DNA of 64,000 nt, taken from the NCBI GenBank assembly GCA_965372795.1, contig CBDVDR010000007.1, positions 1 through 64,000 of the forward strand, given 5' to 3'. This DNA comes from an uncultured bacterium (GTDB lineage: Bacteria > Zixibacteria > MSB-5A5 > GN15 > FEB-12). The notes under the pieces are model-generated. The model saw only the letters and a list, made by a program, of their open reading frames with translations, made no database searches and was not told where the DNA came from. The translations under genes were made by a program, and so were the position numbers. How positions within the stretch are numbered: position 1 is the first letter of the stretch; every line of letters begins with the position of its first letter. Shown one piece after another: positions 33,900-54,357 of the stretch.

Positions 33900-33972
33900 T
33901 CCCCTGTAGCTCAGTTGGTAGAGCAGCTGACTGTTAATCAGCGGGTCGCAAGTTCGAGTCTTGCCGGGGGAG
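33900..33972 (+). tRNA. tRNA-Asn (GTT), CCA not encoded
   Basis: TCCCCTG acceptor pairing with CGGGGGA; D-arm TAGCTCAGTTGGTAGAGC; anticodon arm GCTGA-CTGTTAA-TCAGC; T-arm GCAAG-TTCGAGT-CTTGC; upstream TTGACA at 33847. Confidence 0.97.
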
Positions 33973-35478
33973 CTTTGTTATACGATTTTGCGAACTCCCA
34001 CTAAACTCAGGTAATTCAAAGATATCCAATATAATTTTATCTTGATAAATAATCACATCTTTAAGAATACATTGGATAGCTTCAGCTTGGTCTTTTGGTC
34101 CCAAAGCTTCAAATGCAATGCTGAAATCCTGTAGACTCTTTCTAACTAAATCTGCATCGTATTCTTCAAAAGCTTGTTCATTGATTTTTCTAGTAATTTC
34201 TTCTAATTCAAAATTTAGAATTTTTAAATTCTTTTCTCTAAATTCAATTTCTTTTTCTAAACGATCTATACTAATTTTCCCAACACCAATGGCTTGAACA
34301 TATTTATCAATTTGAGCTTCTAATTCAGAAATTCTCAGTTTGATCTTTTTAGCTTCATCTTCCAAGGGACCAATTTGATTTTTTAAATCACCATTTAGCT
34401 TTTCAATTGATTTATTTAGATAGGTTTCATTTTGGGATAAATCATAAAGATCATTAATTACGATTTTTTCAATTTTATTCGCATTAAAACTCTTAATTTT
34501 ACATACTCGATTACTAAAATTCATCGTTTTAGTACAGCGATAATAAGGTATTCGATTTATTGAGTTATCCTTATTTCTTTTTTGAGTATAATGGGGTGTC
34601 ATAACAGAACCACAATCACTACATCTAATTAAACCTTTTAATAGGTAAACTTTTTCAATCCTTGAAGTAGGATGACTTCTTGTTGGGTGCATTAATTGAA
34701 TTCTCTTAAATAGAGTTTCATCAATTATTGCTTCGTGTTGCCCTTTATAAATCTTTCCCTTTGATCGAGTTTTTCCTATATACACAGGATTTCTTAAAAT
34801 ATGAGCTATTGCACTTTTACTCCATCTACCATTTGATCGTGGTAAATAACCATACTTTTCCAATTCTAAGCGTAAACTACTTAATGAAGGATTTATACCA
34901 AAGTTATTAAACATAAATTTAATAATAGGTTCTTCTTCTGGATTCGGTAGAAGCTTTTTATTTTCCCTCAAATATCCATAAGGAGGTATGCCACCATTCC
35001 ATAAACCTTTTTGTGCTCTCTGTTGCATCTTATCACGTGTTCGATCTGAAATCATTTCTCTTTCAAATTGAGCAAAATCTAAAAGTATATTCCGTAGCAA
35101 GCGACCAGTAGGATGATTAGTATCAATATTTTGTGTAATAGAAACGAAGTTTACATTATATTTATCAAATTCTTCCATTAGAGTATGGAAATCTTTAACT
35201 GATCGAGTCAATCTATCAATCTTATAAACTAAAACACAATTGATTTTTCCTTTTTGGAAATCTCTGATCATTTCTTGTAATGCAGGACGTTTAACAGAAT
35301 CACCAGAAAAACCACCTTCTACATATACACGATAAATCTCATAATTATCCTGACTTTTACAATATGCTTCAAGCTTTTCTTTCTGTGAATCTAGAGAGCT
35401 ATAATCATTCACCATTTGACTACGACTTGATACACGAGTATAAAGAGCACAAATTATTTTATTTTTTTTCTTATCCAT
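33934..35478 (-). CDS. Large serine recombinase (resolvase + recombinase + Zn-ribbon)
   Basis: LYTRVSS catalytic Ser, KRPALQ, KIDRLTRS, FAQFEREMISDR, PPYGY, ILRNPVYIG, LLKGLIRCSDCG...YYRC. The last codons overlap the tRNA antisense. Confidence 0.95.
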   Translation of the reverse strand: MDKKKNKIICALYTRVSSRSQMVNDYSSLDSQKEKLEAYCKSQDNYEIYRVYVEGGFSGDSVKRPALQEMIRDFQKGKINCVLVYKIDRLTRSVKDFHTLMEEFDKYNVNFVSITQNIDTNHPTGRLLRNILLDFAQFEREMISDRTRDKMQQRAQKGLWNGGIPPYGYLRENKKLLPNPEEEPIIKFMFNNFGINPSLSSLRLELEKYGYLPRSNGRWSKSAIAHILRNPVYIGKTRSKGKIYKGQHEAIIDETLFKRIQLMHPTRSHPTSRIEKVYLLKGLIRCSDCGSVMTPHYTQKRNKDNSINRIPYYRCTKTMNFSNRVCKIKSFNANKIEKIVINDLYDLSQNETYLNKSIEKLNGDLKNQIGPLEDEAKKIKLRISELEAQIDKYVQAIGVGKISIDRLEKEIEFREKNLKILNFELEEITRKINEQAFEEYDADLVRKSLQDFSIAFEALGPKDQAEAIQCILKDVIIYQDKIILDIFELPEFSGSSQNRITKLPRQDSNLRPAD

Positions 35479-36001
35479 TTACATTTTGTAATGGTTTTGA
35501 TCTTGTGATCCACCATTCCTTCAATTTTGAACCTAATATCAATAGTAAGGAACCACCGCCTAAAATCAAAAGGCTAAGATGCATTCCTACAATAGAAGGA
35601 TTTTCTTTTATGTAATTCTCTGCTTCTTTAGATCCGTGGCATTTTAATAAAAGAGAATAACTCAATATCTCTGCTTGAAATTCAGCTTTGGAAGTCTCTA
35701 TTTTATCAATTGAATCAAGGTGTATCATACAGTGTACAATTTCATGAAAAATTGTGTAATCTCTATGAAATTTAGATTTATTTGAATTTATAAAAATTGT
35801 ATTTCGCCCTTCTACAGTAATCGCTTCACCACTAAAATTTTCTGGAAACTTTGAAGATCTATTAATTGGGATATTCAGATGTTTTGCAAGTTTATAGGGA
35901 GATTTAAATGCTTCATTTGGTAGATTATCAAAAGAATCATATAATTTACTATAAGGTTCAAGCAATAAGTTTCGCCAAAAATTTTTAACCTTTTCAGTCA
36001 T
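35471..36001 (-). CDS. ImmA/IrrE-family metallopeptidase with C-terminal hydrophobic helix
   Basis: IFINSN....RDYTIFHEIVH (HExxH), EFQAE; adjacent to the Xre repressor. Confidence 0.8.
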   Translation of the reverse strand: MTEKVKNFWRNLLLEPYSKLYDSFDNLPNEAFKSPYKLAKHLNIPINRSSKFPENFSGEAITVEGRNTIFINSNKSKFHRDYTIFHEIVHCMIHLDSIDKIETSKAEFQAEILSYSLLLKCHGSKEAENYIKENPSIVGMHLSLLILGGGSLLLILGSKLKEWWITRSKPLQNVNG

Positions 36002-36357
36002 CTATTTTTTGCCTTCTTTTTCGCAATATCATTAACAACCTTTAGTACATCTTTAAGTTCTTTTTCAGAAAGAGTACCTGCAGCTCTAAATAACCTAGCC
36101 ATATTTGGCTTGTTATCTGAGAATTTTCCTGCTTCGGCAATAAGTTCATTAGAGTCAATATTTAGTACTTCCGCTATATCTCTAATTTTCTCATTTGAAG
36201 GTGGTTTCTGAATTCCCCGAAGTATCCTAGATAAATAACTAGGATTTATATTTGTTTCTGATGCTAACTTTCTAAGGGACATTCCTTGCTTATCCATCTC
36301 AGATTTTATTTTATCGCTAAAAAACTTACTTTGCTGTTTTTCAATTTTTTCACCCAT
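35998..36357 (-). CDS. Xre-family HTH repressor (ImmR-like)
   Basis: MSLRKLASETNINPSYLSRILRG HTH; start 36357 (MGEK) after GGAGG RBS. Confidence 0.88.
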   Translation of the reverse strand: MGEKIEKQQSKFFSDKIKSEMDKQGMSLRKLASETNINPSYLSRILRGIQKPPSNEKIRDIAEVLNIDSNELIAEAGKFSDNKPNMARLFRAAGTLSEKELKDVLKVVNDIAKKKAKNR

Positions 36358-36398
36358 TAAGGCAAATCCTCCATCAATTTTAATCAATATCAATAATG

Positions 36399-36493
36399 TA
36401 TCCCACATAGTCAACACTTTTTTTACTTTTTCTAAGAAATTATTTAAAATAGACAAAATATATGTTGACTATTTAGGATACGGTTAGTAACCT
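36399..36493. promoter_or_regulatory. Divergent promoters with inverted operator pair
   Basis: tatcccacatagtcaaca (36399-36416) and tgttgactatttaggata (36463-36480) are 16/18 inverted repeats, each containing TTGACT; rightward -10 TAACCT at 36488. Confidence 0.65.
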
Positions 36494-36499
36494 CTAGGC

Positions 36500-36736
36500 A
36501 TGAAACAAAAAATATTAAAATGCAGAATGTTAGAAATTAGAAAAAATTGGAAAGGCAAAGGCTTGAGTTTAGCACAACTCGCTAACAAGGTCGGTTTAAG
36601 TAGATCATATATTTGCAAGATAGAGCAGAATCATCGAAAGCCAAGTGGTGAGGTCATGCTAAGAATTGCAAATTGTCTTAATTGCCAAGTAGAAGAAATC
36701 TTTTATCTAACAGAAGAAAAAGTTGAGAACTTGTAA
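36500..36736 (+). CDS. Cro-like Xre HTH protein
   Basis: LSLAQLANKVGLSRSYICKIEQN...PSGEVMLRIA..L...VEEIF. Confidence 0.88.
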   Translation: MKQKILKCRMLEIRKNWKGKGLSLAQLANKVGLSRSYICKIEQNHRKPSGEVMLRIANCLNCQVEEIFYLTEEKVENL

Positions 36737-36753
36737 TTTTTTTAAGAAAGTAT

Positions 36754-36939
36754 GTGCCCTATATAAGGCACATAAAGCGAATGAATCAATTAAAAGTTGA
36801 AAGGAGATTTGTACCCATAGAAAAGGTAAAAGCTGAAGAGTTGTCTAACGCTTTTTGGCGAATCTTAGTCGGAGGTGCAATATCTGCAACCTCCATTAAA
36901 CAAAAAATGTCCCTCAAAAAGGAGAATTACAATGGATAA
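36754..36939 (+). CDS. Small hypothetical protein (possible directionality factor)
   Basis: Co-oriented ORF in the operon, stop overlaps the next start; function inferred from position only. Confidence 0.4.
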   Translation: MPYIRHIKRMNQLKVERRFVPIEKVKAEELSNAFWRILVGGAISATSIKQKMSLKKENYNG

Positions 36940-37231
36940 CGAAATAATCGTTGAATTAAGACAAATTGAAGACAATAAATTTTCAAAAGCTAAAGCAGAA
37001 ATAACTCTGCAAACTCCTTTTGGTGAAATTACAATAACTAGAATGAGAGTAGTTCACCAAGATGGTAAAGATCCTTGGGTGGCATTTCCCGAAATACCAT
37101 ATCAACCTAAGGATTCTTCTGAAAAACGATACTTGAAAGTTATTTTGCCAAGTAAAAGATTAAGAGCTGCAATATCAGAAGCAGTACTTAATAAATATGG
37201 GAGTATGAAATTCAATGAGAAATCATTCTGA
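36932..37231 (+). CDS. SpoVG-like nucleic-acid-binding protein 1
   Basis: Start MDNEII after AGGAG; KAKAEITL...ITITRMRVV....PWVAFPE pattern. Confidence 0.65.
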   Translation: MDNEIIVELRQIEDNKFSKAKAEITLQTPFGEITITRMRVVHQDGKDPWVAFPEIPYQPKDSSEKRYLKVILPSKRLRAAISEAVLNKYGSMKFNEKSF

Positions 37232-37532
37232 TATCACAGCTACAATTCATCTATTTAAAGATGCTCAGAATCTTAAAGCTTATGCTGATGTAGCTATTAA
37301 AACTCGAATAGGCGAAATTACTATTCGTAGATTTAAAGTGATTTCAACTAATTCTGGTAAATTGTGGGTTGCACTTCCCCAATTTGAGTATCAAAAAATT
37401 CTTTCAACTTCTTATGTGGATGCAATTGTAACCACTAAAAGAGCATTTCGCAGAATTCAAAGATTAGTTTTGAATGAATACAAAAAGAAGATTCATCTGG
37501 AAAATTCCCATGTTCAGGTTGATCGCTCCTGA
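37215..37532 (+). CDS. SpoVG-like nucleic-acid-binding protein 2
   Basis: LKAYADVAI...ITIRRFKVI....LWVALPQ...VLNEY pattern. Confidence 0.7.
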   Translation: MRNHSDITATIHLFKDAQNLKAYADVAIKTRIGEITIRRFKVISTNSGKLWVALPQFEYQKILSTSYVDAIVTTKRAFRRIQRLVLNEYKKKIHLENSHVQVDRS

Positions 37533-37661
37533 CATGGGGGGCGTACGGTTTGCCCTAATGAGAGCAGCTTCAAGGCTGCTCTCTGACCGGTGCCCAAGCC
37601 GCCGGGGTCCTATTGGCGAATGCCAATGGGCGGCGGCAACAAAGCGATTGCCCGAAGGGCA
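37507..37661 (+). other. GC-rich multi-hairpin region (candidate single-strand origin or structured RNA)
   Basis: Stems at 37507-37538, 37539-37554, 37560-37583, 37598-37637 and 37649-37661 in an AT-rich element. Confidence 0.6.
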
Positions 37662-37738
37662 TACTGGCTTCTTGGTTGCTCTTGTTTCTGGCGTCATTTG
37701 TTGTCTATCTGTCAACTCGCAATTTTGGAGGAATTTAT

Positions 37739-38458
37739 ATGGCTTCTTCACTTGATATTAATAAGCATAATCGAAACAAGTTCTGCGGAAGATATTCACT
37801 AAAAGGATATTTAGAACAAAATGGAGAAAAGAAAATTAGATACGCAAGGCTCGGATGTAAAGGATGGAACTGTCAAATATGTGGACCTAGAAAAGCTTCT
37901 AAGTATCGTCATTCAATCAAAGAACAAGCTCTAAAGTTAAACTTAGATAGATTTCTTACATTAACTTTGGATCCCAAAAAATGCAAACCACATAATTCCT
38001 TGCCACATATAAAAAAGAGTTGGGCTAAATTCAGAATTTCTTTAAAAAGAAAATATGGTCATAGCATTTCATTTATCTGTATTGTGGAATTCCAAAAAAA
38101 TGGTTATGCACACTTACATATTCTTGTTGATCGTTTTATACCTCAAAAATGGATATCACACGCTTGGAATTCTGTAGGTGGAGGAAAGATCGCATTTATT
38201 GAGAGAGTTGAATTAAAGAGTATTGCTTATTATATAACTAAATATTTAACTAAAGATACAAACTTCAATAATTCGGGGAAGCGATACCGAAAATGCACAA
38301 CATCTAGAAATATTAAACTAAATTATCATAAGAAATCAGGGAAATGGGTAGTTATGACAGTTCCTATTGAAGAAATACATAATTCTTATAAGAAACAACA
38401 ATCGAAAGAACATAGAGATATGTCTGGGATGTTACATTGGTTTGAGATTTCAGTATGA
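37739..38458 (+). CDS. HUH rolling-circle replication initiator
   Basis: Motif I FLTLT, motif II EFQKNGYAHLHILV, motif III YYITKYLTK, N-terminal CKGWNCQIC; GGAGG RBS before ATG 37739. Confidence 0.88.
   Translation: MASSLDINKHNRNKFCGRYSLKGYLEQNGEKKIRYARLGCKGWNCQICGPRKASKYRHSIKEQALKLNLDRFLTLTLDPKKCKPHNSLPHIKKSWAKFRISLKRKYGHSISFICIVEFQKNGYAHLHILVDRFIPQKWISHAWNSVGGGKIAFIERVELKSIAYYITKYLTKDTNFNNSGKRYRKCTTSRNIKLNYHKKSGKWVVMTVPIEEIHNSYKKQQSKEHRDMSGMLHWFEISV
37750..37764 (+). other. Putative double-strand origin / nick site
   Basis: ACTTGATATTAATAA matches the phiX174 origin (CAACTTG^ATATTAATAAC) and contains the CTTGATA nick consensus. Confidence 0.7.
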
Positions 38459-38479
38459 ATTGGTATGTATTTAATTACC

Positions 38480-38508
38480 TTGACTTAAAAAGGATCAATA
38501 ATTACATT
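38480..38508 (+). promoter_or_regulatory. Sigma70-like promoter for cargo operon
   Basis: TTGACT-17 nt-TACATT upstream of the GAGGGG RBS. Confidence 0.55.
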
Positions 38509-38555
38509 TATACAAACAGGACTAATTCATCTAGAAAAAACTAGAGGGGAATCAC

Positions 38556-39101
38556 ATGGACCTAATCCCAGAATTTAAGAAATTTGCAAAAAAAAGAGCC
38601 AAAGAAATAAAGGCAATGACTGATGTTCAATTTACTCCTGAAACTGCTCAGGTTAACATTGCAGGTCAACAACTTCAATTCAAATTAAATGTAGAGCAAA
38701 CAGCTGCTTGGAAATTGTATGTTGAATTAAATACAAGGATCTCTACTCAACCCTTATCCAAAAAAGACGGGCTATTAAGGGAAGCATTATCTTCTCTTTA
38801 TATAATATTTGGAGTTACAAGAGATATTTTAAAAGAAGCTGGACCTGGCGTAGCAATCGGTCCAAATTCTTTTGGATATTATGCTATGGAAATTCTCAAT
38901 CAAGTTATAAGACCGTTGTTAGCAAAATGGAATCATAAATTACTTAATTGTTAAAAACATAATAAATTAAATTTATCTCAATTTGAACATTAAAAAAAAT
39001 GGAATAAACAAATAGCTTTACGAAAAGAGATTGAAAAAACAAGAAAAGTAATAATTGAATATAATAAATCTTTAGCCATAATCGCAGGGATTTCAAAATA
39101 A
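38556..39101 (+). pseudogene. Helical protein of unknown function interrupted by two in-frame TAA (38952, 38991)
   Basis: Frame continues C*KHNKLNLSQFEH*KKWNKQIALRKEIEKTRKVIIEYNKSLAIIAGISK* and ends 6 nt before the next gene. Confidence 0.7.
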
Positions 39102-39107
39102 TAAGTT

Positions 39108-39584
39108 ATGATTAAAAGACAAGTTTTTATAAGCTTCCATCATAAAAATGAGCAATCTGTAGTAGACGATTTTGTGAATGCATTCAGCACTTACTATGAC
39201 GTTTTTACTGACAGATCTCTTGATAGAGCTGCAGATAGCGATGATACTGAATACTTAAATCAAGTATGTAGAGATGCCATAGAAGGTACAAGTATAACAA
39301 TCGTAATAATAGGTACTGAAACTGGTAAAAGAAAATTTGTAGACTGGGAAATTAAACATACTTTATTAAAAAAACATGGACTTCTAGCTATATTTCGACC
39401 AAACCTAGAAGATCACCTTACAAATTTGCCGAATCGCTTAATTGACAACATAAATTCAGGATATTCAAATTGGTATAAATACCCATCTTCTCCAGAAGAT
39501 CTGCGATTAATGTTAGAAAAAGCATACAATATAAACAAAGCTTTGATAGACAATAGTAGAGAAAAAATGAAAAGAAACCTATAA
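39108..39584 (+). CDS. ThsB-like TIR domain protein (MTH538/DUF1863)
   Basis: RQVFISFHH, TSITIVIIGTET..RKFVDWEI, GLLAI, LPNRL.DN. Confidence 0.85.
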   Translation: MIKRQVFISFHHKNEQSVVDDFVNAFSTYYDVFTDRSLDRAADSDDTEYLNQVCRDAIEGTSITIVIIGTETGKRKFVDWEIKHTLLKKHGLLAIFRPNLEDHLTNLPNRLIDNINSGYSNWYKYPSSPEDLRLMLEKAYNINKALIDNSREKMKRNL

Positions 39585-39616
39585 TGTTCTTAACGATAAG
39601 CCATTTGAGTATCTAA

Positions 39617-40261
39617 ATGAATATAAATAATTCGTATAAGTGGGATATTTTTATTAGTTACCATAGATTACCTGCAATTGAAAAATGGTTAAAAGAAATA
39701 TTAATTCCTTTACTCGAACTTCATCTACCAAGTTCATTGGGAAGAGAAGCAGATATATTCTGTGATGATAATATAAAAACTGGTAATCATTGGCCAAATG
39801 AATTGAGCGATGCATTAGCATATTCTAAAGTATTGTTACCAATTTGGACTGTACTTTATTTTCATCGAGAATGGTGTTTAAAAGAGTGGTTAACTATGGT
39901 CAACAGAGAATCTAAATTAAATAGTCTTTCAAGGGAAGAGCAATTTACATTAATCAAGCCGATAAGACTACTTGATGGAAATAAATATCCTATATTTGCT
40001 CAAAATACACAAAGTTTAACCTGTACTAATTATTTTACAACTTCTGAATGTTATAAACAAACACTCGAGTATATAAACCTAGAGAAAAAGATAACAGATT
40101 GGTGTAATAATGACTTAGGACAATCGATAGTTACTGCACCACCTTGTCAAGAATTTTGGTTAAATGAAGAATTTTCTAGAAATTCAATAAGAGCTTTAGA
40201 ATCACAAAGTGAAATGCAACCTATTGATTTAAACACAACACCAAGATTAGGTAATGAATGA
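39617..40261 (+). CDS. TIR domain protein (TIR_2/FxsC-like)
   Basis: WDIFISY, IFCD..IKTG..WP..L..AL..SKVL, YF..EWC..EW. Confidence 0.85.
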   Translation: MNINNSYKWDIFISYHRLPAIEKWLKEILIPLLELHLPSSLGREADIFCDDNIKTGNHWPNELSDALAYSKVLLPIWTVLYFHREWCLKEWLTMVNRESKLNSLSREEQFTLIKPIRLLDGNKYPIFAQNTQSLTCTNYFTTSECYKQTLEYINLEKKITDWCNNDLGQSIVTAPPCQEFWLNEEFSRNSIRALESQSEMQPIDLNTTPRLGNE

Positions 40262-42747
40262 GTAAAATAATTACATTCTATTCTTACAAAGGTGGAGTTG
40301 GTCGTTCCATGGCATTAGCAAACGTTGCGGTAAAACTATCAGGATTGGGACATAAAACTCTTATAATAGATTGGGATCTTGAAGCTCCAGGATTGGAATT
40401 CTATTTTAAAGAATATTTGGATTTAAGTAAAATAAAAACTAAACCAGGCATTATTGATATTTTAAAAGGAGATCATTCTACAAATTTAAAATCAACTAAA
40501 TGGACAGATTGCATCTCAACAATTAGTATTGATAATGCAACTCCATCCATACATTTTATATCATCAGGTAGCAACAAAGATAATTATTATAAAAAAGTAC
40601 AAGAATTTGATTTAGATAGTTTCTTTAATAAGAATAAAGGACAATCCCTGTTATACGAATTAAGAAATGAATGGTTAAATACTTATGACTTTATCCTCAT
40701 CGATAGTCGTACTGGCATTACAGACTATGGAGGAATTTGTACTATTCTTTTACCAGATGTAAACATACTATTTGTGACAACTAACGATCAAAGTCTTACA
40801 GGTAGTGAATATGTATTTGAAAAAGCGCATCAAATTAGAAAACAACTCCCTTACGATTATGAAAACATTATTTTTGTTCCAATATTAAGTAGATATGATG
40901 CTACTGAAGAATATCAAATTTCACAAGATTGGATAAAAAAAATAGATAAATCATTGTCTAAACTTTATGAGAAATGGACACCAAGGAACATTATAACAGA
41001 AGAACTAATTCAACAAACAAGCATTCCTTATATCCCATATTTTAGTTACGGTGAAAGACTTGCAGTTTTAGAAGAAAGTTCATCAATGACTAGATCTTTA
41101 AGCAATGCATATGAGAACCTTTCAGCATTAATTGCAAATAATTTCCAATATCTTGATGATATGATAAATAATCGAAGAAGTTTTTTAGCAAGAGCTTCAA
41201 AAATAAAAAATAAAGATGACTTAAGATTGAGACACACTGTTCCGCTTGTAAATTCTCCAGATTTAATCCATTTAAATTATGATAATCATCAAAAATGGTT
41301 AAGTACAAATGGTTCTGCAGGAGATCAAATGGATATAAAAAACAAAGAATTTTTAAATTTAGAACTTTTTGATCTTAATTTAGGCAAGTCCGAATTCAAC
41401 ACTTCAACAATGAAGAACTCCAATTTCACTTTTATTGATTTTTCTCATTCATCTTATAGATATAGTAATTTTTCGGGATCCAAATTTACATCTTCAAACC
41501 TATCATCTATAGATGGTTTTAATGCAATCTATATTAATGTCATATTTGATGGTGTAAGCGCTACACTATCCGATTTGTCTACTAGCAATTTAACAGATGC
41601 TATAATTAAAAACTCTGATTTTTTTCAATCAAATTTAGATGATTGTAATATGCAAAATTCCAAACTTCAAAATTCAAACTTTGATCTTGCTAGTTTTAAA
41701 AATTCTGATTTGAACTCTTCGAATCTCGAGCATTCAAATTTTTATAGATCTAATTTTGCAAATGCAAACCTTAGATCATGCATTTGTTATGATGCAGATT
41801 TTAAAGGGGCTAACTTCAGTGATGCTAATCTAGCATATGCAAAGGGATTAAAAGAATCTCAACTAAAAATGACAATATTAGATTTTGCAAAATTACCTGA
41901 TCATATAAATTTTAGTGATTCACTAAATTCTTTTGGTAAAAATTTAAAAAGTGTACAGAGTTCATTTTGGATAACATCTATAATTGCACTTACTTATTTG
42001 TTTGCTCTTATAAATTACTTAACAATCGGTAACTCTAAAGAGTTTATTATTTTTTTACCAAATCTCCAAAATTTCGCCATTCCACAAATAATTGCAATTA
42101 TAATTTCCATGTACTAGTCACAAAGTTTATGGGATAAAATATCAAAATTACCATGTAGTTTTCCTGATGGTAAAACTCTTCATGAAAAAGGAGATTCTAT
42201 TTTTTTTGTAGGAAATATTTTTCCTACGCTCCAGAGAAATAACATAAGAGCTAATCCATTTAGGAGTATTCTATTCATAAGTTTGTATTGGGGATCTACA
42301 TCTATAATCTATGTTTCTGGTGCTTTTGTCATTTATACATATCCTAATTTTTATCCAGATACTAATTTCACTTTTTCCTTTATAGTTGCAATTTCATTAA
42401 GTTTAATAGGAATTTTATCATATTTTTATTCTAATATAAAGTTAGCTAAAAATAATAGACCAAGTTTTATTTGTTCTCACGAAGTAGCATTATTTAATTT
42501 GCCAAAAAAAATGTTTAAATATGAAATGTTAGATTTATTAGATAATTATGGAAGAATCTTAAGTTTAAGAAAAACAATTAGTATCAATGATGATATAGTG
42601 TGGAGTGTAAGGTTAGAGAGTAATTTTCAGGTACAAAAAGTGATAAAAAGTCTTGATCGTAGTAATTTTCATAATAAAGTGATAAGAGCTATTGGTATAC
42701 CGATTGGAGAGGAATTATCTAAAACTCTATATAATAGAGTCAAATAA
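40258..42747 (+). pseudogene. KGGVGR-variant ParA/MinD ATPase-pentapeptide repeat-TM-RRM-like protein with one in-frame TAG (42115-42117)
   Basis: FYSYKGGVGRS, DWDLEAPGL, YDFILIDSRTG, IPYIPYFSYGE; pentapeptide repeats. The frame stays open after the TAG and joins the 42283..42747 ORF. Confidence 0.8.
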
Positions 42748-42810
42748 TTTCATGATACACGATCTAAGGATTATATCTTAGCTTACCATAATTGATAGAA
42801 AAGTTGTCTA

Positions 42811-43566
42811 TTACTTCAACTTTATGACGTCAATTATTTCATCACCTTCATCTAAGTTAATTAACCTATCTCCATCTAATATTAAAACATCAGAAGAACC
42901 GATCCAGATACTAGTTGAATATGTATAATAGTCATCAACTTGATATAAACTTCCATCTAACATCTCTAATATTGAACCATCTCCTTTTACTTCATAAATA
43001 TATGCCTCTTCAACATCGCAAGAAGTTGCATAACTAGCTTCTTTTAATATATCACACCTATAAGATCTCTTACCTTCGATCCATATTTTCCATTGGTTGC
43101 TTACTCTGTAAAGTACTGCAGTCTTTCGATATCCTATATATCCTAAATATCCAGAAGTTATTTCAACAATAGCACCATTATCCAAAGTAACTACATCTTT
43201 AATATCAGAGTCTACTTTACTAATATAAGCAATATCTGAATTTGGAGATCCTTTTATATTGGTTGGATTACTTTTCTTCTGATTCACTATATTTTTTCGA
43301 AAGATTTCTGAGCATTCTTTATATCCCATCTCATAAATACCATTCATCAATTTATTTAATTTATTTTTCTCTAAGTCAGTTAATTTTCTTAATCCGATAG
43401 AATTACTCATAATCGTATCATTTTGAATTATTGATATAAAATTAAATTCAAATTGAGTAGTATTTTGAGCTAAACTAATTTGTACAATAAAGATAAGTAT
43501 AGTTAGTTGAATGTAGATATGCCTGATTAAGAAAAATAGTGATTTATTCTTTTTCATAAAATACAC
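42811..43566 (-). CDS. Secreted hypothetical protein
   Basis: Long ORF with signal-like N-terminus and beta-rich C-terminal half. Confidence 0.6.
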   Translation of the reverse strand: MYFMKKNKSLFFLIRHIYIQLTILIFIVQISLAQNTTQFEFNFISIIQNDTIMSNSIGLRKLTDLEKNKLNKLMNGIYEMGYKECSEIFRKNIVNQKKSNPTNIKGSPNSDIAYISKVDSDIKDVVTLDNGAIVEITSGYLGYIGYRKTAVLYRVSNQWKIWIEGKRSYRCDILKEASYATSCDVEEAYIYEVKGDGSILEMLDGSLYQVDDYYTYSTSIWIGSSDVLILDGDRLINLDEGDEIIDVIKLK

Positions 43567-44982: not shown

Positions 44983-45094
44983 AATGTCAATATCCTTCGA
45001 AAGTAATTCTTTGTTCTATTCATGTCGTATCGCGTCAATCGGATTGGCGATTAACGCGACGTTATGGACAGTCGCCTAGTGTGCATAATTTTGT

Positions 45095-47470: not shown

Positions 47471-47494
47471 GAATGTACACTCACTTTCTAAAAC

Positions 47495-47662
47495 CTATTC
47501 ATATTTTAGTGATTCAATCGGATTAGACGAAGCTGTCTTTATCGCTTGATAGCTATCAACAAAGCGAGCAATGCCGTTAGCCAGCCCGACTATATTGAGT
47601 AGAGTAATACCGTCCTGACGACGGGTCGATCTCAACGCGATCTTGAGAAAGTTCTTAAGCAT
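47495..47662 (-). pseudogene. 55-aa in-frame N/C-terminal fusion remnant of an ABC permease
   Basis: MLKNFLKIALRSTRRQDGITLLNIVGLANGIARFVDSYQAIKTASSNPIESLKYE*. Confidence 0.75.
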
Positions 47663-48341
47663 GACGAGTCTTTATGTCTTCTGTTACAACAGCGCCATCG
47701 AAAAGGTTGATGGTACGACTGCAGTAGTCAGCGAATGCCTGAGAATGAGTGACCATTACGATCGTAGTGCCTTCTTCATTGAGTTTCGTCAGGCAGGTCA
47801 TCACATCCTGTCCGTGGGCTGAGTCAAGATTGCCGGTTGGTTCATCGGCGAGAATCAGTCTTGGATTGGCAACAACTGCTCTTGCAACAGCCACACGTTG
47901 TTGTTGACCACCTGATAACTGTTGTGGGAAATGCTTTGAACGGGCAATGATCTCAAACTCTTTAAGTGCCTTGTTGACGCGTGTTCTTCTCTCAGATGCG
48001 GCTATCCCGAGATAGAGAAGAGGCAGTTCGACATTCTCAAAGATGTTCAGTTCATCAATCAGGTTAAAATTCTGAAAGACAAACCCGATGTTGTTCTTGC
48101 GAAGACTGGCTCTTTGACGTTCGGTATATTTGGAGACTTCAGTTCCGAGCAAATGATATTCTCCCCCGGTTGGGTTATCCAGAAGTCCAAGAACATTCAG
48201 CAGAGTTGATTTGCCACAACCAGATGGTCCCATAATTCCGACAAACTCACCTTCTGCGATGTGGATTCCAATATCGTTTAGTGCCGTTGTCTCGATGTCT
48301 TCGGTGCGGTAAGTTTTTTGCAGGTTGACGGTACGAATCAT
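47655..48341 (-). CDS. ABC transporter ATP-binding protein (MacB/LolD-like)
   Basis: GPSGCGKST, LSGGQQQRV, ILADEPTGNLD; start MIRTVNL after GGAG. Confidence 0.95.
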   Translation of the reverse strand: MIRTVNLQKTYRTEDIETTALNDIGIHIAEGEFVGIMGPSGCGKSTLLNVLGLLDNPTGGEYHLLGTEVSKYTERQRASLRKNNIGFVFQNFNLIDELNIFENVELPLLYLGIAASERRTRVNKALKEFEIIARSKHFPQQLSGGQQQRVAVARAVVANPRLILADEPTGNLDSAHGQDVMTCLTKLNEEGTTIVMVTHSQAFADYCSRTINLFDGAVVTEDIKTRHA

Positions 48342-48378
48342 GGTTATTACTCCTTTTAACATTGTCATTATATTTTTC

Positions 48379-49647
48379 CTATTTAAATACGAGTTGGTCA
48401 ATTTCGCCAAAAGTTTCATAGGAGGAAGTAACCACTTTTTCCCCCGGTTTAAGACCTTCAAGTACTTCGTAGTAGATTGAATTTGAACGCCCCAATCGGA
48501 TAACACGTTTTTTGGCCAGATTGTCTGTCTCATCTACAACATAAACCCATTGACCACCCGTGCTTTGCCAGAAAGCTCCACGCTTAATCAGAATTGCCTC
48601 GGAGGAGCCACCCAGATTAAGGCGGATACGAAGTGTTTGGCCACGTCGGATTCCTTTTGGAGCACTTCCGATAAATTGCAGGTCCACTTCAAAGCGACTG
48701 TTAACAACCTCAGGGTAAATTTTCTCAACCAGCAGTTCAATGTCTTCATCATCAAAAGTAGAGGTTGCTTTTTGTCCGACCTGTACTCTTGAGAGATAAT
48801 GCTGGTCCACCTGGACTCTCGCTTTGAAACCTACCGGGATATCTATTCTCCCCAACTGTTCACCACGATTCTTAGTTTGTCCAATTTCTGCATTCAACGA
48901 AGTCAACTGCCCGTCTATCGGGGCTCGTAACGTAAGATTATCGAGTTTTTGTTTTACCATATCAAAATTGTCTTCCATGCGTGTCAATCCCTCTTGAAGT
49001 TGACCAACCTGAGTCTCCCTGAAAACAGAATCTTGTCGAGCATTTTCAACTGTTAACTCAAACTTAGCGGCGTAGTACTCAAATGTCTCTTTGGCTTCAT
49101 CGAACATTCTCACCGAGATTAACTCCTTTGTCAGAAGCGCTCGAAATTCTTCGTAAGTACGCTTTTTCTGAGATAATTGGTACTTGAGATCAAGCAGTTG
49201 TTCGGCCATTCGAAGCCGATTCTGCTGCATAGCTAAACGAGTGTTTCGTAAGTTATTCGATTGCTGAAAAAGCTCTGCTTCACGAAACATGATATCCAAA
49301 AGAAGATTAGTATTAGCCAGTCGCAGAATAGGGTCGCCTTTGTTGACATAAGAACCTGCCTCAACAAATACCGAGTCCACCTGTCCACCTTCAGTTGCAT
49401 CCAGAAATATCGTCCGAAGAGGAATCACTGTGCCTGTTTCAGGAATGAACTCCTGAAATTCACCTACGGTTACATCTGAAATAGAAATACGTTCGATATC
49501 GACACTGAGTCTGGAACTGTGATCTCCAAAAATTAGATTGTATAGAATTAAAATAGTCGCCAGTCCACCCACTGATAAGTAAGCAATCATTTTGATTGTC
49601 CAGAATTTCCGTTCGATCAGTCTATCCATACGAGAGATGTCACTCAT
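48379..49647 (-). CDS. Efflux membrane-fusion (HlyD/RND adaptor) protein
   Basis: N-terminal TM, EGGQV lipoyl half, coiled coil, RAPIDGQL, EVLEGLKPGEKVV. Confidence 0.9.
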   Translation of the reverse strand: MSDISRMDRLIERKFWTIKMIAYLSVGGLATILILYNLIFGDHSSRLSVDIERISISDVTVGEFQEFIPETGTVIPLRTIFLDATEGGQVDSVFVEAGSYVNKGDPILRLANTNLLLDIMFREAELFQQSNNLRNTRLAMQQNRLRMAEQLLDLKYQLSQKKRTYEEFRALLTKELISVRMFDEAKETFEYYAAKFELTVENARQDSVFRETQVGQLQEGLTRMEDNFDMVKQKLDNLTLRAPIDGQLTSLNAEIGQTKNRGEQLGRIDIPVGFKARVQVDQHYLSRVQVGQKATSTFDDEDIELLVEKIYPEVVNSRFEVDLQFIGSAPKGIRRGQTLRIRLNLGGSSEAILIKRGAFWQSTGGQWVYVVDETDNLAKKRVIRLGRSNSIYYEVLEGLKPGEKVVTSSYETFGEIDQLVFK

Positions 49648-49724
49648 ACACTATTTCTCACAATCTATGTTGCAGTTCAATATTTTTAAGACGGCCAAAT
49701 AGCGTCTCGGTTGCTAAAAGACAT

Positions 49725-49833
49725 TACAATAATCGTGCCAGTTCAAGTAAGTCGTTGTTATACAACAAAACTAATGGTATTGCGGTGGGGTTTTACTGCC
49801 CGCTTATGGAGGTTTGCTGTACGAATGCGTACA
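49725..49833 (-). promoter_or_regulatory. Sigma54 promoter, IHF-like site and TGT-N10-ACA enhancer
   Basis: Minus-strand CTGGCAC-gatta-TTGTA (49725-49741); TAACAAcgacTTA (49748-49760); palindrome TGTACGaatgCGTACA (49818-49833). Confidence 0.75.
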
Positions 49834-50006
49834 CTAAATCCCTTGCCCCAAAGCAACTATCGGATTACTTTGTATGTAAGTCACTGTTAATCAACGATCT
49901 GAATTGTTTTCTCGTGATGGTATGTTTTCTGCTTTCATCTTTACATTGAAAGCAACAACGATTAGAAATGCACAAGAAGTGAAAGTGACAATGGAGTGTG
50001 TGACGA

Positions 50007-51392
50007 ATGAGCGAATTGAATTTTAGTTCAAGCCGAATCCTTGTAGTCGATGACGACCCTGATGTGCTTTTGGCGGCACGACTTCTGCTTAAGCAGCATG
50101 TCGCCGAGGTAGTCACCGAACCTGATCCCAATCGAATCCAAGAACATCTTGGCACGAGCGATTTTGATATCGTGATGTTGGATATGAATTTTACACGGGA
50201 TCAAACGAGCGGTGAAGAGGGGCTCCATTGGCTCAAGCAGATTTTGAAATGGGATCCCGAGATGGTCGTAGTAATGATCACTGCATACGGTGACGCCGAA
50301 ATTGCCGTTCACACGATCAAGAGCGGAGCGACTGATTTTGTTCTAAAGCCGTGGCAAAATGAAAAGCTGCTTGCCACGATGTTCTCCTCTCTGAAGCTTC
50401 ACCACTCACAAAAAGAGGTTGAGAATCTTAAGCAGTCTCGACGACAGTTAAGTGCCGACATGGATCAGCCGTTTGGGGATTTTATTGGTTCAAGTAAGGC
50501 AATGAAAGAGGTGATCGCCACTATCGCAAAGGTGGCGGTAACCGACGCGAACGTTTTGATAACAGGGGAGAACGGGACTGGTAAAGAATTGGCCGCAAGG
50601 GCAGTTTACCGACGATCGCTTCGTGCTGGTGAAGTATTTGTCAAAGTTGATATGGGATCAATAGCCGAGACGCTGTTTGAATCGGAGCTGTTTGGTCATG
50701 TAAAGGGAGCTTTCACCGATGCGAGAGAAGATCGCGCAGGCAGATTTGAGATTGCATCAGGGGGGACGCTTTTCCTCGACGAAATCGGAAATACTCCGAT
50801 CACACTACAGGCTAAACTATTGACCGTTTTGCAAAGTCGCCAGGTTACCAGAGTAGGTTCAAATAGTACAACACCAATTGATATTAGACTAATATCAGCC
50901 TCGAATATGCCGCTCGAGGAATTGGTCGAAAATAAGCTCTTTCGCCAGGATTTGCTCTATCGAATCAATACCATAGAGATTGTTTTACCGCCACTCAGAG
51001 AGAGGATTGATGATATTGATGATCTGGCAGAGTATTATCTCAAGATGTATGCGGGGAAATATAAGAAGAGCGTGAATGGTATCACGCCTGCTGGAATTAA
51101 TAAGCTCAAATGCCAACCCTGGCGCGGCAACATAAGAGAGCTTCAGCATACGCTCGAACGAGCGGTTATAATGAGCGAGTCGGATCAGTTGACACCGGAT
51201 GATTTCCCGTTTAGTCAAAGTGGTGATTTGGCTGACTCAAAACTTATGGCGAGTCATAATTTGGAAAAGATTGAGCGGACTATAATTGTTCGCGTACTCT
51301 CTTTGAATGACAACAATATCAGCCATGCTGCCGAAGTATTGGGACTCACACGCACATCACTTTATCGTCGTATGCAAAAACATGGTCTTTAA
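50007..51392 (+). CDS. NtrC-family sigma54 response regulator
   Basis: Receiver (VDDD, LDMNF), GENGTGKE, ELFGHVKGAFTDA, FRQDLLYR, Fis-type HTH. Confidence 0.95.
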   Translation: MSELNFSSSRILVVDDDPDVLLAARLLLKQHVAEVVTEPDPNRIQEHLGTSDFDIVMLDMNFTRDQTSGEEGLHWLKQILKWDPEMVVVMITAYGDAEIAVHTIKSGATDFVLKPWQNEKLLATMFSSLKLHHSQKEVENLKQSRRQLSADMDQPFGDFIGSSKAMKEVIATIAKVAVTDANVLITGENGTGKELAARAVYRRSLRAGEVFVKVDMGSIAETLFESELFGHVKGAFTDAREDRAGRFEIASGGTLFLDEIGNTPITLQAKLLTVLQSRQVTRVGSNSTTPIDIRLISASNMPLEELVENKLFRQDLLYRINTIEIVLPPLRERIDDIDDLAEYYLKMYAGKYKKSVNGITPAGINKLKCQPWRGNIRELQHTLERAVIMSESDQLTPDDFPFSQSGDLADSKLMASHNLEKIERTIIVRVLSLNDNNISHAAEVLGLTRTSLYRRMQKHGL

Positions 51393-52728
51393 GCATTTTA
51401 GAATACAAATAATCTCGCGCGTTCTCATTTTATGTGTGACTATTTTGGCTGCAGCCTGGCTCCTGAGTGCAACTGAAAAGTATGCCACGACCGGGATGGT
51501 TATCCTATTGTTCATTCTACAGGTGATCTTTCTCATTCGATTTGTTGAAAAAACAAATCACACGATGGCAGAGTTCCTGCAAGCGATTGAATACGACGAT
51601 TTTACTCAGTCTTTCGGGAATGTTGCAAGCGGCAAATCGTTCGACGAGTTGAATCAGGCCTTTGTTAAAGTTTCTGCGAATTTCCGAGAGGTTCGTCTGG
51701 GGAGGGAGGAAAATTACAGATACTTGCAGACGGTCGTTCAGCATGTTGGAGTCGGCATGGTAGCATTTCAGGAGAGCGGAGAGGTCGAACTTTTTAACTC
51801 TACCGCCAAGAAGATACTGCAATTGGCTTCATTGAAGAATATCAATGACCTTAAAATGAAAAGTCCGGAACTTTTAGAACGTATTAAATTTCTCAATCCG
51901 GGAGAGCGCGATCTGGTTCGAGTCACAATTGATAAAAACTTGGTACAACTGTCTCTTTTTATGACTATCCTTAGGATGCGCAATCGCAAAATAACTCTGG
52001 TGTCGTTTCAGAATATCTCCGCTGAGCTTAACGAAAAAGAGATGCAGGCATGGCAGAATCTTATCAGGGTGTTCACTCACGAAATAAAAAACTCTTTGAC
52101 GCCGATCAGTTCTTTGGCTGGAACTATAGAAACTCTCTTAGTTCCAATTACGTCGCAACTAAACGTGAAGAATCGGGAGAGCATTACTGATATCTCCGAG
52201 GCTCTTACGACAATCAAGAGTCGTTCAGAAGGCTTACATGAGTTTATTAATGCTTATCGTGATCTGACAAACCTTCCCCAACCTGTGTTTGAATCGTTCA
52301 AGGTGACCTCTATGTTTGAGCGGGTTGGACAGCTTGTGAAAGATCAAATTCAATCTGGGGGGATTAATTACTGTGTAGAACTATCGAATCAAACCCTCTC
52401 GGTTACAGCAGACAGCAAAATGATCGAACAGGTGTTGATCAATCTGATCCTTAACTCAATCCAGGCTTTGAATGGATGTGAAAAACCGAAATTAAAAGTG
52501 TGTGGGTTTGTTGATTATCAGAATCGAGTAACAATTACTGTCGAAGACAATGGCCCGGGGATTGCGAATACGGCGATTGACAAAATATTCGTACCGTTTT
52601 TTACTACTAAGAAAACCGGCTCAGGAATTGGCCTAAGTCTGTCAAGGCAAATCATGCGTCTTCACAAAGGTGAACTAACTGTTTCGTCTGAACCAGATAA
52701 ACGCACAATCTTAACCATGCGCTTCTAA
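51382..52728 (+). CDS. Sensor histidine kinase (NtrY-like)
   Basis: Start MVFKHF overlaps the regulator stop; two TMs, PAS-like, HEIKNSLTPI, DNGPGI, FFTTK..GSGIGL. Confidence 0.92.
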   Translation: MVFKHFRIQIISRVLILCVTILAAAWLLSATEKYATTGMVILLFILQVIFLIRFVEKTNHTMAEFLQAIEYDDFTQSFGNVASGKSFDELNQAFVKVSANFREVRLGREENYRYLQTVVQHVGVGMVAFQESGEVELFNSTAKKILQLASLKNINDLKMKSPELLERIKFLNPGERDLVRVTIDKNLVQLSLFMTILRMRNRKITLVSFQNISAELNEKEMQAWQNLIRVFTHEIKNSLTPISSLAGTIETLLVPITSQLNVKNRESITDISEALTTIKSRSEGLHEFINAYRDLTNLPQPVFESFKVTSMFERVGQLVKDQIQSGGINYCVELSNQTLSVTADSKMIEQVLINLILNSIQALNGCEKPKLKVCGFVDYQNRVTITVEDNGPGIANTAIDKIFVPFFTTKKTGSGIGLSLSRQIMRLHKGELTVSSEPDKRTILTMRF

Positions 52729-53109
52729 GATGACCATTTGAGCCACAATTGATTATCTGCTTAGGAATTCTCTGCCAGCATAATCACGACAAGATGCAAT
52801 AAAATCTACCATAAAGCCTGTGCTATTTAAATACCGTTTCAACATTCTTGAATTCAGTTTCCATCTGACATAAAGAAAAATGTGTCTTAGATTTCAACTA
52901 CACTTGTCCGGATTGTTTGAAGACATTCAATTCTTTATTCCTAAATTTCATTATATCAACTATGCTTATGCCGCAGTTCTAAATTAGTCCACGATGGCCC
53001 GCCATTATATTTATTATTTCCGAATAGTGGTTCAAATCCTTTTGCTTGCCATATGTGTCCCTAATTTAAAAGGATATTGAAGTAATAACATTGTTAGAAT
53101 ACATCAAAA

Positions 53110-53195
53110 AGTTGCGAAATTCGTCTAATTGGGGGAGCTTTATAATCATAAAAATTTGAACCACTTACACAATAGCTTTATCGCACATTCGAACT
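53110..53195. repeat. att-like junction 3
   Basis: agttgcgaaattcgtctaatt-gggggagcttt...tgaaccacttac...cacattcgaact. Confidence 0.75.
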
Positions 53196-53373
53196 TTAAG
53201 CCACTCTTTCTCGTTATTCCACTATCAGTTAAGGAAAGTTGTATAGCTTTTTAACAGCTTGTACTTTTACTCTTTAATCCTGTTCAATAAATAGACTTGA
53301 CAAGTCTACGCATTTTTTTAATTTAACTTTGTACTTATAAAATACTACTCAATTTTTTATAAATCGAAAACAG

Positions 53374-54159
53374 ATGAAAGGTTTTAATATGAAGTACTTA
53401 TTTATTCTTGTTGTTCTTTGCCTGCTGATAATTGGCTGTTCTGATAATCCCGTCAAAAGCAGTAACGGTTTTATTTCCGTAGAATCCTTTGATGCTCCTG
53501 CTCCGGAAGGCATTGAGCATTTATATTTACATGTTCTTGAAGTATCAACTCATCATTCAGATGACGGTTGGATAGTTTTATCGGAACCTGATACGGTCAT
53601 CGATTATATGGAATTGATAAACGGTATAACTGTTTTGTTAGCCGATAGCGTTTCTCTCCCTGTTGGTGACTACGAGCAAATGAGACTGTTGTTGTCTGAC
53701 TCCAATGAAATTGTTATTGAAGGCACAACTTATGACTTAACTACGCCAAGTGCGCAACAATCCGGGATTAAACTCAATCTGAATTTTTCTGTTGAAGAGA
53801 ACCAACTGATAGAAATCTATGTTGATTTTGATATTTCAAAATCAGTTATCAGTGCCTCATCAAAGTATATACTCACTCCGACATTCCGTGCTTTCAAACA
53901 AATTTTATCTGGCACTATTGCCGGAACAGTCGTTGATGCTCTTGGCGACCCGCTTGAAAATATAACGATTGACGTTGCTGGAGTAGAATATGCAACATCA
54001 ACAATTACTGATGCTGAAGGCAATTATCTTTTGATACTTCCTGAAGATACCTATGATATTACTGCAACAGCTGAAAATCTGACAGCTAATAAGACTTATA
54101 CCGGCGTAGAGTTAAATCCTCTTGATGAATTGACAGGATTTGATTTTATAATGGAATAA
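53374..54159 (+). CDS. DUF4382 lipoprotein with carboxypeptidase-regulatory-like domain (sole gene of segment D)
   Basis: IIGC lipobox, DAP, LP.G.Y.Q.RL, TPSAQQSGIKL, DFD..KSV, GTIAGTV. Confidence 0.85.
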   Translation: MKGFNMKYLFILVVLCLLIIGCSDNPVKSSNGFISVESFDAPAPEGIEHLYLHVLEVSTHHSDDGWIVLSEPDTVIDYMELINGITVLLADSVSLPVGDYEQMRLLLSDSNEIVIEGTTYDLTTPSAQQSGIKLNLNFSVEENQLIEIYVDFDISKSVISASSKYILTPTFRAFKQILSGTIAGTVVDALGDPLENITIDVAGVEYATSTITDAEGNYLLILPEDTYDITATAENLTANKTYTGVELNPLDELTGFDFIME

Positions 54160-54177
54160 TGATAAAAATAATAGATC

Positions 54178-54206
54178 AAACCGCCTGATTTTCAGGCGGT
54201 TTTTTT
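54178..54206 (+). terminator. Intrinsic terminator
   Basis: aaaccgcctga-tttt-caggcggttttttt. Confidence 0.85.
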
Positions 54207-54325
54207 GTCAATTAATATAAAAGCTAAACTCTTTGATTGTTGATCAGGTTACCTATAAGAGAAGAGCAAACTTCATCCACAATTTCTTAGATTTTCTCAA
54301 AAAAACTGCTGATCGTTGCTCAACC

Positions 54326-54357
54326 AGTTACAAAACTCGTCCAATTGGGGGAGCTTT
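54326..54357. repeat. att-like junction 4 (probable outer attR)
   Basis: agttacaaaactcgtccaatt-gggggagcttt, followed by a small hairpin and T-tract and no IHF-like box. Confidence 0.75.

Follow-up and report, generated by a model that had tools for sequence, protein, structure and literature searches.

A probable accretion stack of serine-recombinase units at a tRNA-Asn gene of an uncultured Zixibacteria bacterium

Results

The 3' end of a tRNA-Asn gene in an uncultured bacterium (GTDB lineage Bacteria; Zixibacteria; MSB-5A5; GN15; FEB-12) is followed by a row of four units, A to D, each closed by a copy of the same short sequence. We consider it likely that this row is an accretion stack, that is, a series of units integrated site-specifically at the tRNA 3' end by large serine recombinases (LSRs), in which the units without an LSR ride with an intact element or are served in trans. 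The window analyzed comprises 64,000 nucleotides (positions 1 to 64,000 of contig CBDVDR010000007.1, assembly GCA_965372795.1, forward strand), and its features at this locus are collected in Table 1.

The tRNA-Asn(GTT) gene is the only tRNA gene that ARAGORN found in the window (Rfam tRNA, 70.3 bits). Its last bases together with two more form the core GGGGAGCTT, which is present at 33967, 43753, 44602, 53132 and 54348, always on the forward strand; five copies compare with 0.32 expected and were reached in none of 100 shuffles. These copies close units of 9786 (A), 849 (B), 8530 (C) and 1216 bp (D), and directly upstream of each of the four downstream copies lies an arm of 21-22 nt. The junctions R1 and R2 carry the arm type of A, and R3 and R4 a second type: the R1 and R2 arms are identical, with 31 of 31 matching positions when the core and one preceding base are included, and those of R3 and R4 are 84% alike over 38 nt. 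The pattern of inner arm plus core matched four times in the window (0.21 expected) and the second-type arm pattern twice (0.06 expected), and within 33001-56000 the motif AGTTCGC and its complement GCGAACT are confined to these sites. To the right of 54356 the core and arm patterns gave no further match; the 34 nt that follow the last core may be the native chromosomal flank of the tRNA (the B' side), beyond which a DUF4153 gene starts at 54516. G+C content is 0.24-0.33 in A and B, except for one peak of 0.37-0.40 at 37200-38199, 0.41-0.48 in C and about 0.35 in D.

Table 1. Coordinates of the features at the tRNA-Asn locus (positions of the window).
Feature	Position	Strand	Description	Basis
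tRNA-Asn (GTT)	33900-33973	+	T arm and acceptor end: putative B half-site of attB	ARAGORN, Rfam
LSR, 514 aa	33934-35478	-		Pfam, PHROGs, PDB
attL of A (putative)	33951-33996	+	tRNA B arm (AGTTCG at 33951), core 33967-33975, P' arm 33976-33996	
Element A	33976-43752		LSR, ImmA/repressor/Cro switch, rolling-circle Rep, TIR-type defence cargo	
ImmA/IrrE-type metalloprotease	35471-36001	-		Pfam, PHROGs
Helix-turn-helix (HTH) repressor	35998-36456	-		Pfam, PHROGs
Cro-like HTH protein	36500-36736	+	divergent from repressor	Pfam, PHROGs
SpoVG-like protein	36875-37231	+		below Pfam cut-off
SpoVG-like protein	37215-37532	+		just above Pfam cut-off
Rolling-circle Rep	37613-38458	+		Pfam REP_ORF2-G2P 2e-15; phrog_3419 rolling-circle replication initiation 4e-16
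Cargo of A	38556-43566		first gene 132 aa, no family	Pfam
ThsB-like TIR protein	39108-39584			PADLOC ThsB 2e-14
Second TIR protein	39617-40261			Pfam
AAA_31 ATPase with pentapeptide repeats	40258-42117			PADLOC candidate PDC-M28B 1e-26
Protein without family, 154 aa	42283-42747	+		
Protein without family, 251 aa	42811-43566	-		
Junction R1, attR of A (putative)	43732-43761	+	P arm 43732-43752, core 43753-43761	
Unit B	43762-44610	+	measured core to core; one gene; ends in P arm and core R2	
X module X1	43762-43814		directly after core	
Unit B gene, 210 aa	43916-44548	+	no family	Pfam
Junction R2	44581-44610	+	P arm 44581-44601, identical to that of R1; core 44602-44610	
Unit C	44611-53140	+	ends at R3	
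X module X2	44611-44667		directly after core	
Broken ABC ATPase fragment	about 44780-44960	-	in-frame stops; left end of C	read by eye
MacB permease, ABC ATPase, HlyD-type adaptor	45095-49647	-	efflux set of C	Pfam
Sigma-54 response regulator and histidine kinase	50007-52728	+	unit C	Pfam
Insertion-sequence end fragment	52883-52924		unit C	repeat search
80-nt repeat	52930-53009		unit C	
Junction R3	53110-53140	+	P arm 53110-53131 (second type), core 53132-53140	
Unit D	53141-54356	+	ends at R4	
X module X3	53141-53195		directly after core	
DUF4382 lipoprotein	53374-54159	+	unit D; lipobox-like signal at start	
Terminator	54178-54202		unit D; 11-bp stem, after lipoprotein gene	
Junction R4	54326-54356	+	P arm 54326-54347 (second type), core 54348-54356	
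Presumed original B'-side flank of tRNA	54357-54390	+	short hairpin, then T run	sequence

The anatomy of these sites is that expected for a serine recombinase. The P' arm directly after the tRNA core is the inverted partner of the R1 and R2 arm (a minus-strand pattern match with one mismatch; by direct reading the two are a 1-nt indel apart), and joining the right arm of A, the core and the left arm gives an imperfect inverted repeat of ~51 bp, which has the size and form expected of an attP for an LSR. The last ~20 codons of the LSR gene cross the P' arm and the core and the frame then runs 34 nt into the tRNA gene, so the attP of A lies within the 3' end of its own LSR gene, and each P arm in the array is therefore an LSR gene tail by origin. 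The modelled product has 514 aa in the integrated state and 520 aa in the circle, where the final codons come from the P arm. The predicted attB of A consists of the tRNA T arm and acceptor end plus whatever came after the tRNA, and crossover would take place within the core, with its geometric centre near G-A-G. From the start of AGTTCG to the core there are 16 nt in the tRNA (motif at 33951), 21 nt in the arms at 43732 and 44581, and 22 nt in those of the second type, a shift of 5-6 nt. In this regard, Rutherford et al. place the zinc-ribbon motif of an A118-type integrase at attP positions 16-24 and 5 bp nearer the centre in attB (PMC3783163), and the shift seen here matches this published signature. 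The site pair thus combines an attP of ~50 bp, with imperfect inverted half-sites, and an attB that shares only the core with it and has the outer motif ~5 bp closer.

A first-pass annotation of this DNA had described the four recurrences of the core, the arms of about 21 nt in an identical pair and a divergent pair, the inverted copy of the former after the tRNA, the sizes, gene content and G+C of the segments (with a lipoprotein gene that has its own terminator), the restriction of the recombinase to the first segment and the AGTTCG motif lying 5 nt closer to the core in the tRNA. Our analysis reproduced these observations, and the 5-bp difference between attB and attP half-sites of LSRs, which that annotation had given as known, is borne out by PMC3783163.

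Among the 24 proteins of 31328-58760, a Pfam search found a recombinase only in the 514-aa protein of unit A. This protein has the N-terminal resolvase catalytic domain, the recombinase domain and the zinc ribbon of an LSR (Resolvase PF00239, 9e-42; Recombinase PF07508, 5e-16; Zn_ribbon_recom PF13408, 2e-14), matches phrog_95 (integrase, 7e-126) in PHROGs, and has the integrases of TP901-1, SPbeta and A118 as relatives in the PDB. By its gene and site content, A is an intact integrative element. Ordinary islands of phage-type tyrosine integrases, whose repeats would have arisen as displaced tRNA 3' ends, come to mind because such islands classically target tRNA genes (PMC4383910) and a 24-nt direct repeat of the tRNA end brackets one unit of the metagenome locus L164. 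We regard this explanation as extremely improbable: no tyrosine recombinase was found among the 24 proteins, the arms beyond the 9-nt core are not tRNA copies and have the outer motif displaced by 5-6 nt, and the arms P and P', adjacent to an LSR gene, mirror each other across the core, so that site anatomy and gene content contradict it for this window.

Units B, C and D are bounded by cores and have no recombinase. None was found by Pfam in their called genes, and at E values up to 1 no recombinase family matched the B gene, the three unknown proteins of A or the 20 additional stop-to-stop frames (40 aa or longer) in the uncalled parts of B-D. In addition, a tblastn search with nine LSRs over the first 600 nt behind the core at the left end of B, C and D gave no LSR remnant at the same E threshold. 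Unit C is foreign: its operon (44959-52737) is 89% identical in DNA over 7.8 kb to that of a genome of another family (G035:C37; L050 290-8081), while a genome of the same genus is without unit C and only 73% identical in the neighbouring HPr kinase gene. The G+C of the operon matches that of G035 (0.46). The copy in G035 is not flanked by core or arm sites, and an insertion-sequence terminal repeat adjoins the kinase gene in both copies, in opposite orientations.

Among 40 relatives, the neighbourhood of HPr kinase, PDZ protease and tRNA-Asn is kept in many and the content after the tRNA varies. Two recombinase-less units of 1.2 and 4.4 kb, closed by the second arm type, follow in G015, and two of 1.4 and 2.7 kb with related arms in G016; the nine open reading frames (ORFs) of these units have no Pfam family. 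LSR genes are located at or near the tRNA end in G024, G035, G021 and G033. The contigs of four relatives (G004:C264, G039:C13, G036:C49 and G021:C19) end within about 2 kb after the tRNA-Asn, which fits assembly breaks at a variable, repeat-bounded locus.

Recombinase-less units of the same kind were also found far outside this genome. A 29-nt degenerate pattern for the second arm plus core, run against genome, metagenome and viral contig collections, recovered nine loci of the genome collection, in metagenome-assembled genomes labelled Zixibacteria, Ignavibacteriales, FCB group, one Planctomycetia and one Actinomycetes, together with 13 metagenome contigs and no viral contig. At least two sites were present in 11 of the 25 sources tallied, a tally that includes the near-duplicates L051/L171 and L055/L164, and units outside the window are 953 to 4373 bp long. 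No LSR was matched by tblastn at the nine genome and 13 metagenome loci, and no recombinase family was found among 72 ORFs, 15 ORFs or 27 of the 52 ORFs listed for five metagenome loci. The cargo of these units includes Fic, AbiEi/AbiEii, MerR with MerC-HMA, an SBF transporter, MatE, CrcB with DUF190, HEPN with a nucleotidyltransferase and RRM proteins. A length difference between G015 and L171 was considered as a unit difference and rejected, being a tandem repeat inside a gene.

Turnover of whole units can be followed in the metagenome loci L160/L161 and L164/L055, which share a 3.09-kb stretch with 99.9-99.97% identity (99.97% over 3092 nt between L160 and L164). The identity stops at the cores. 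The shared unit lies beside the tRNA in L160, whereas in L164 a 1.6-kb HEPN/nucleotidyltransferase unit separates the two; the next unit is CrcB/DUF190 in L160/L161 and Fer4/DsrE/STAS in L164/L055, and further along both arrangements converge again. This alignment argues that recombinase-less units were gained, lost or replaced through recombination at the core, though in a lineage other than that of the window. The extra 1.6-kb unit of L164 is closed by a 24-nt copy of the tRNA end instead of a P arm, and the units are therefore of more than one kind. Furthermore, mutated cores (GGCGAGC, GGGCGAGC) follow additional arms at 3713 and 8783 of L164 (oriented) and at 756 of L055, a 3.07-kb unit being split in two, and counts of exact cores therefore understate the number of junctions. 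In L168 (1314-1393, oriented), the interval between two cores is only 73 nt and holds a hairpin, a T run and an arm, in this order; it is a unit without a gene.

Directly after the core, the inner junctions of the window carry a conserved left-end module of ~55 nt (X1 to X3), made up of CAA..ACTTAC, ~22 nt and then TTCGAACT, which was found in eight of ten aligned junctions. It is common to the left ends of B, C, D, the G015 units and four other loci (Zixibacteria, FCB group, metagenome); the joined arm, core and X module of the window agree to 82% with those of G015, with different cargo. The distal motif of X is an inverted copy of the outer motif of the arm, ~32 nt too distant from the core for a P' half-site. 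In other arrays a hairpin and T run directly after the core take the place of the X module, as would be needed by a unit that must end the tRNA transcript. A loose X-module pattern matched 55 loci of the genome collection, of which only two have an upstream arm (one of them on the same contig as L062), the rest being chance matches. An attC-like hairpin of arm plus X was considered and rejected: the consensus fold of the ten junctions has six pairs, all in arm plus core, with no compensatory changes and -3.1 kcal/mol. Rfam found no known RNA family at the junctions.

The second arm type is found next to an LSR in G284 (Ignavibacteria, same class), where an inverted copy of this arm adjoins the tRNA-Asn core and the LSR gene comes next. 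By direct reading, its P' arm agrees with the second type at 6/6 positions of the inner AATTGG and 9/9 of the outer TTTCGCAAC. The relatives of this LSR at 42-46% identity are mostly alphaproteobacterial, with tRNA-Ser in most of those loci, and no att site was found at a second G284 copy of the LSR. The best relatives of A's LSR among 285 genomes of the class are ~35% identical, many of them at tRNA-Asp or tRNA-Val and not at tRNA-Asn. The three other LSRs encoded in the window's genome belong to another clade, together with the G024 LSR at tRNA-Asn.

The same genome contains a second LSR array, on contig C16 (38734-64010; G000, L198 and L199), where an LSR gene (38799-40271, reverse strand) reaches with its 3' end into the tRNA-Asp gene (38734-38808). 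Arm-like sites are present at about 54390, 61367 and 63990, with a core like the tRNA-Asp end that is degenerate in the second and third; the arm is nearly that of R3 of the window, and the 13 nt upstream of it are the same. The cargo comprises a nitroreductase, a phosphoenolpyruvate (PEP) carboxylase, a Ser/Thr kinase and an APH-aminotransferase. In the genome's own assembly, a search for alternative junction contigs found none.

Discussion

In an accretion stack such as we favour, each newcomer would enter beside the tRNA and push the older units outward, giving the order of arrival D, C, B, A; a youngest unit in the proximal position fits the intact A, the identical R1 and R2 arms and the decay in C. 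The inner junctions would be attR-type joints, composed of the left unit's P arm, the core and the left end of the next unit, and this left end would have been the B' half-site when the newer unit came in. B, C and D may be the cargo ends of former elements that lost the LSR side, as in cis-mobilizable elements (CIMEs), or cargo-only units. By the canonical rules for LSRs, an attR would find a partner only in the attL at the tRNA, so the stack could be unloaded only from the tRNA end. A could then leave alone, or A and B as one circle through R2, whose arm equals that of A; such a circle is plausible from the identity of the two arms. After A has left, B could be cut out by an LSR supplied in trans, and for C and D the LSR would have to recognise a different arm. 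The arm that closes B equals that of A, so mobilisation in cis together with A fits the anatomy no worse than mobilisation in trans, and service in trans of a unit once it is proximal is possible.

A number of observations weigh against this picture. Decay is visible in unit C, in the form of the broken ABC ATPase and the insertion-sequence end. Tail remnants of an LSR were found at two of 39 unit left ends, both outside the window, and in G001: after site 6094 of L056, after 625 of L165 and directly after the tRNA-Asn of G001 (same genus; L030; last 30 codons), all that is left of an LSR of the G024 clade is its last 20-40 codons, and these lone tails are direct evidence of LSR gene deletion from such units. 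Together with the decay in C, they mean that part or even all of the units may be fixed relics. In G016, two units are present and no LSR was found in the genome (82% complete). The left ends of B-D have no clean P' or B' half-site and carry the conserved X module instead. In addition, the LSR of A is 33% identical to that of G284 and the other three of the four LSRs of the window's genome are 25-28% identical to it; therefore no LSR of this genome can be assigned to C and D (R3 and R4). Lastly, the exact A-type arm plus core had no match in the genome collection or the viral contigs, so the mobility of A itself is argued from its anatomy.

A rival reading is that B, C and D are dead scars, which decayed in place from full LSR elements, never moved without an LSR and are now fixed, the differences between genomes being due to deletion and homologous exchange. 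Since every P arm represents the last LSR codons by origin, every unit would descend from an LSR-bearing element; the pseudogene and insertion-sequence debris in C, the LSR tails and the LSR-less G016 agree with this, as do the mutated cores at some arms in other arrays and the housekeeping-looking genes, such as PEP carboxylase, in units of the tRNA-Asp array. We nevertheless consider it unlikely that scars are all there is, since arm and core are conserved almost letter for letter across phyla with different cargo, 37 of the 39 left ends, those of B-D included, are free of LSR remnants by tblastn, and backbones with 99.9% identity differ by whole units with breakpoints at the core. Random deletion would have had to remove the LSR each time while sparing the core and the conserved left-end module. 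According to the first-pass annotation, fixed content in relatives with LSR remnants inside B-D would have spoken for simple decay of tandem elements; content proved variable, with unit differences exactly at the core, and no such remnants were found.

Integrons are built by a tyrosine recombinase, IntI, with an attI site and a common promoter, and their cassettes carry attC sites that fold as single strands, so that any cassette can be excised. The array in our window is like an integron in layout only, in that small, promoter-poor accessory units follow one another, a conserved site closes each of them and insertion is at the proximal end. A true serine analogue would have a resident LSR acting in trans, a complete site at each junction and any single cassette inserted or excised independently, as by IntI with attC. 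Small units of 1-4 genes with accessory cargo (toxin-antitoxin, metal, fluoride and efflux genes), junctions conserved on both sides in some arrays, as in the arm, core and X module shared with G015, and units swapped between near-identical backbones are what such an analogue would show. It is nonetheless highly improbable in our view: there is no fixed integrase platform, the only LSR here belonging to a mobile element, the junctions have no conserved hairpin, and none of the 13 metagenome contigs has the terminal overlap of a free circle. Moreover, the published directionality rules of LSRs exclude recombination between two attR-type sites (PMC3783163), and a single inner unit should therefore not be excisable like an integron cassette. 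The first-pass annotation had called the locus an integron-like, tRNA-anchored array of a serine recombinase. Of this, the tRNA-Asn anchor and the serine-recombinase junctions stand, and the likeness to integrons does not reach beyond layout: no IntI-type tyrosine recombinase was found among the 24 proteins of 31328-58760 or the extra frames, there is no attC-like fold, and attI and a common promoter are missing.

A bolder extension of the accretion stack, which we hold only tentatively, is that the recombinase-less units may form a living cassette pool that spans phyla. Each unit would have the conserved arm plus core of ~30 nt, in many cases together with a conserved left-end module by which a working attB is regained. 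Insertion and removal at tRNA-Asn, and in this genome also at tRNA-Asp, would be the work of LSRs encoded on other elements, which would amount to a last-in, first-out serine counterpart of the integron. If whole LSR-less units are exchanged, the tRNA-Asn gene of Ignavibacteria, Zixibacteria and further FCB-group members would be a general gene-capture platform of serine recombinases, with defence, toxin-antitoxin, efflux, metal- and fluoride-resistance genes as cargo. This would extend a principle documented in Dehalococcoides and staphylococci to many uncultured phyla, explain the frequent breaks of metagenome contigs at this tRNA and provide natural matched sets of attB, attP and attR for serine integrases. 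Should all of them be scars, this would be an ordinary integration hotspot with one intact, defence-carrying element.

Arrays of this architecture have already been published for ssrA of Dehalococcoides and rlmH of staphylococci and enterococci; new here are the target, the hosts, the small units and the arm conserved across phyla. The closest parallel is that of the Dehalococcoides ssrA islands of the DsiB serine recombinase (McMurdie et al. 2011, PMC3146451). There too, islands stand in tandem behind a small stable-RNA gene, bounded by its 3' end or a short direct repeat, a conserved motif that cannot be aligned to the target gene lies just upstream of each repeat, and the serine recombinase (~540 aa) is on the reverse strand beside attL; many islands (15 of 31) have no integration module and were proposed to be cis-mobilizable and moved by accretion. 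In contrast to our locus, the target is the tmRNA gene, the phylum is different, the islands are mostly larger (vcr about 12 kb), and the integration module has six genes (DsiB/DsiA), compared with LSR, ImmA, HTH, Cro and Rep here. A site conserved across phyla and single-gene units, as seen here, are not reported for Dehalococcoides in the sections of that paper dealing with the islands.

The staphylococcal cassette chromosome (SCC) elements SCCmec, ACME and COMER and the Enterococcus cassette chromosome, as presented in PMC7029739 and PMC6222049, are similar in that large serine recombinases (Ccr) act at the 3' end of a conserved gene and produce tandem modules with short direct repeats, and modules without ccr, such as ACME, are mobilised by the ccrAB of a neighbour. 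For SCCmec with ACME or COMER-like modules, excision of the single module and of the whole composite has been measured (PMC7029739). SCC elements are recognised by Ccr and integration at the 3' end of rlmH/orfX, use paired CcrA/CcrB or CcrC and have experimentally shown excision (PMC7029739, PMC6222049), whereas our array has tRNA-Asn as target and a single LSR gene. Units B-D also resemble the CIMEs of the accretion scheme, having att flanks and no integration or transfer genes; CIMEs are, in the terms of PMC5704250, defined on tyrosine-integrase integrative and conjugative elements of streptococci, and derivation by decay is part of their definition. The tycheposons of Prochlorococcus are likewise tRNA-anchored, with successive integrations in which newcomers push older islands inward and with both cargo and phage-inducible chromosomal island (PICI)-like types, but 910 of 937 have tyrosine recombinases, only the remainder LSRs, and partial tRNA copies act as separators where our units have P arms (bioRxiv 10.1101/2020.12.28.424599). 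Our literature search, which did not cover the supplements of the cited papers, found no description of serine-recombinase cassette arrays at tRNA-Asn.

Other features of the window

Regarding the cargo of A, Pfam and PADLOC scans of the window proteins found no ThsA-type partner for the ThsB-like TIR protein, and PDC-M50B was a further PADLOC match in this region. An internal att-like site by which A could shed its cargo was sought within the element and none was found. In unit C, Pfam gave no match for the pieces of the broken ABC ATPase. The 80-nt repeat near the right end of this unit is 88% identical to positions 46458-46536 of contig C10 of the same genome (G000), with a weaker second copy nearby, and on this resemblance it is probably mobile-element debris.

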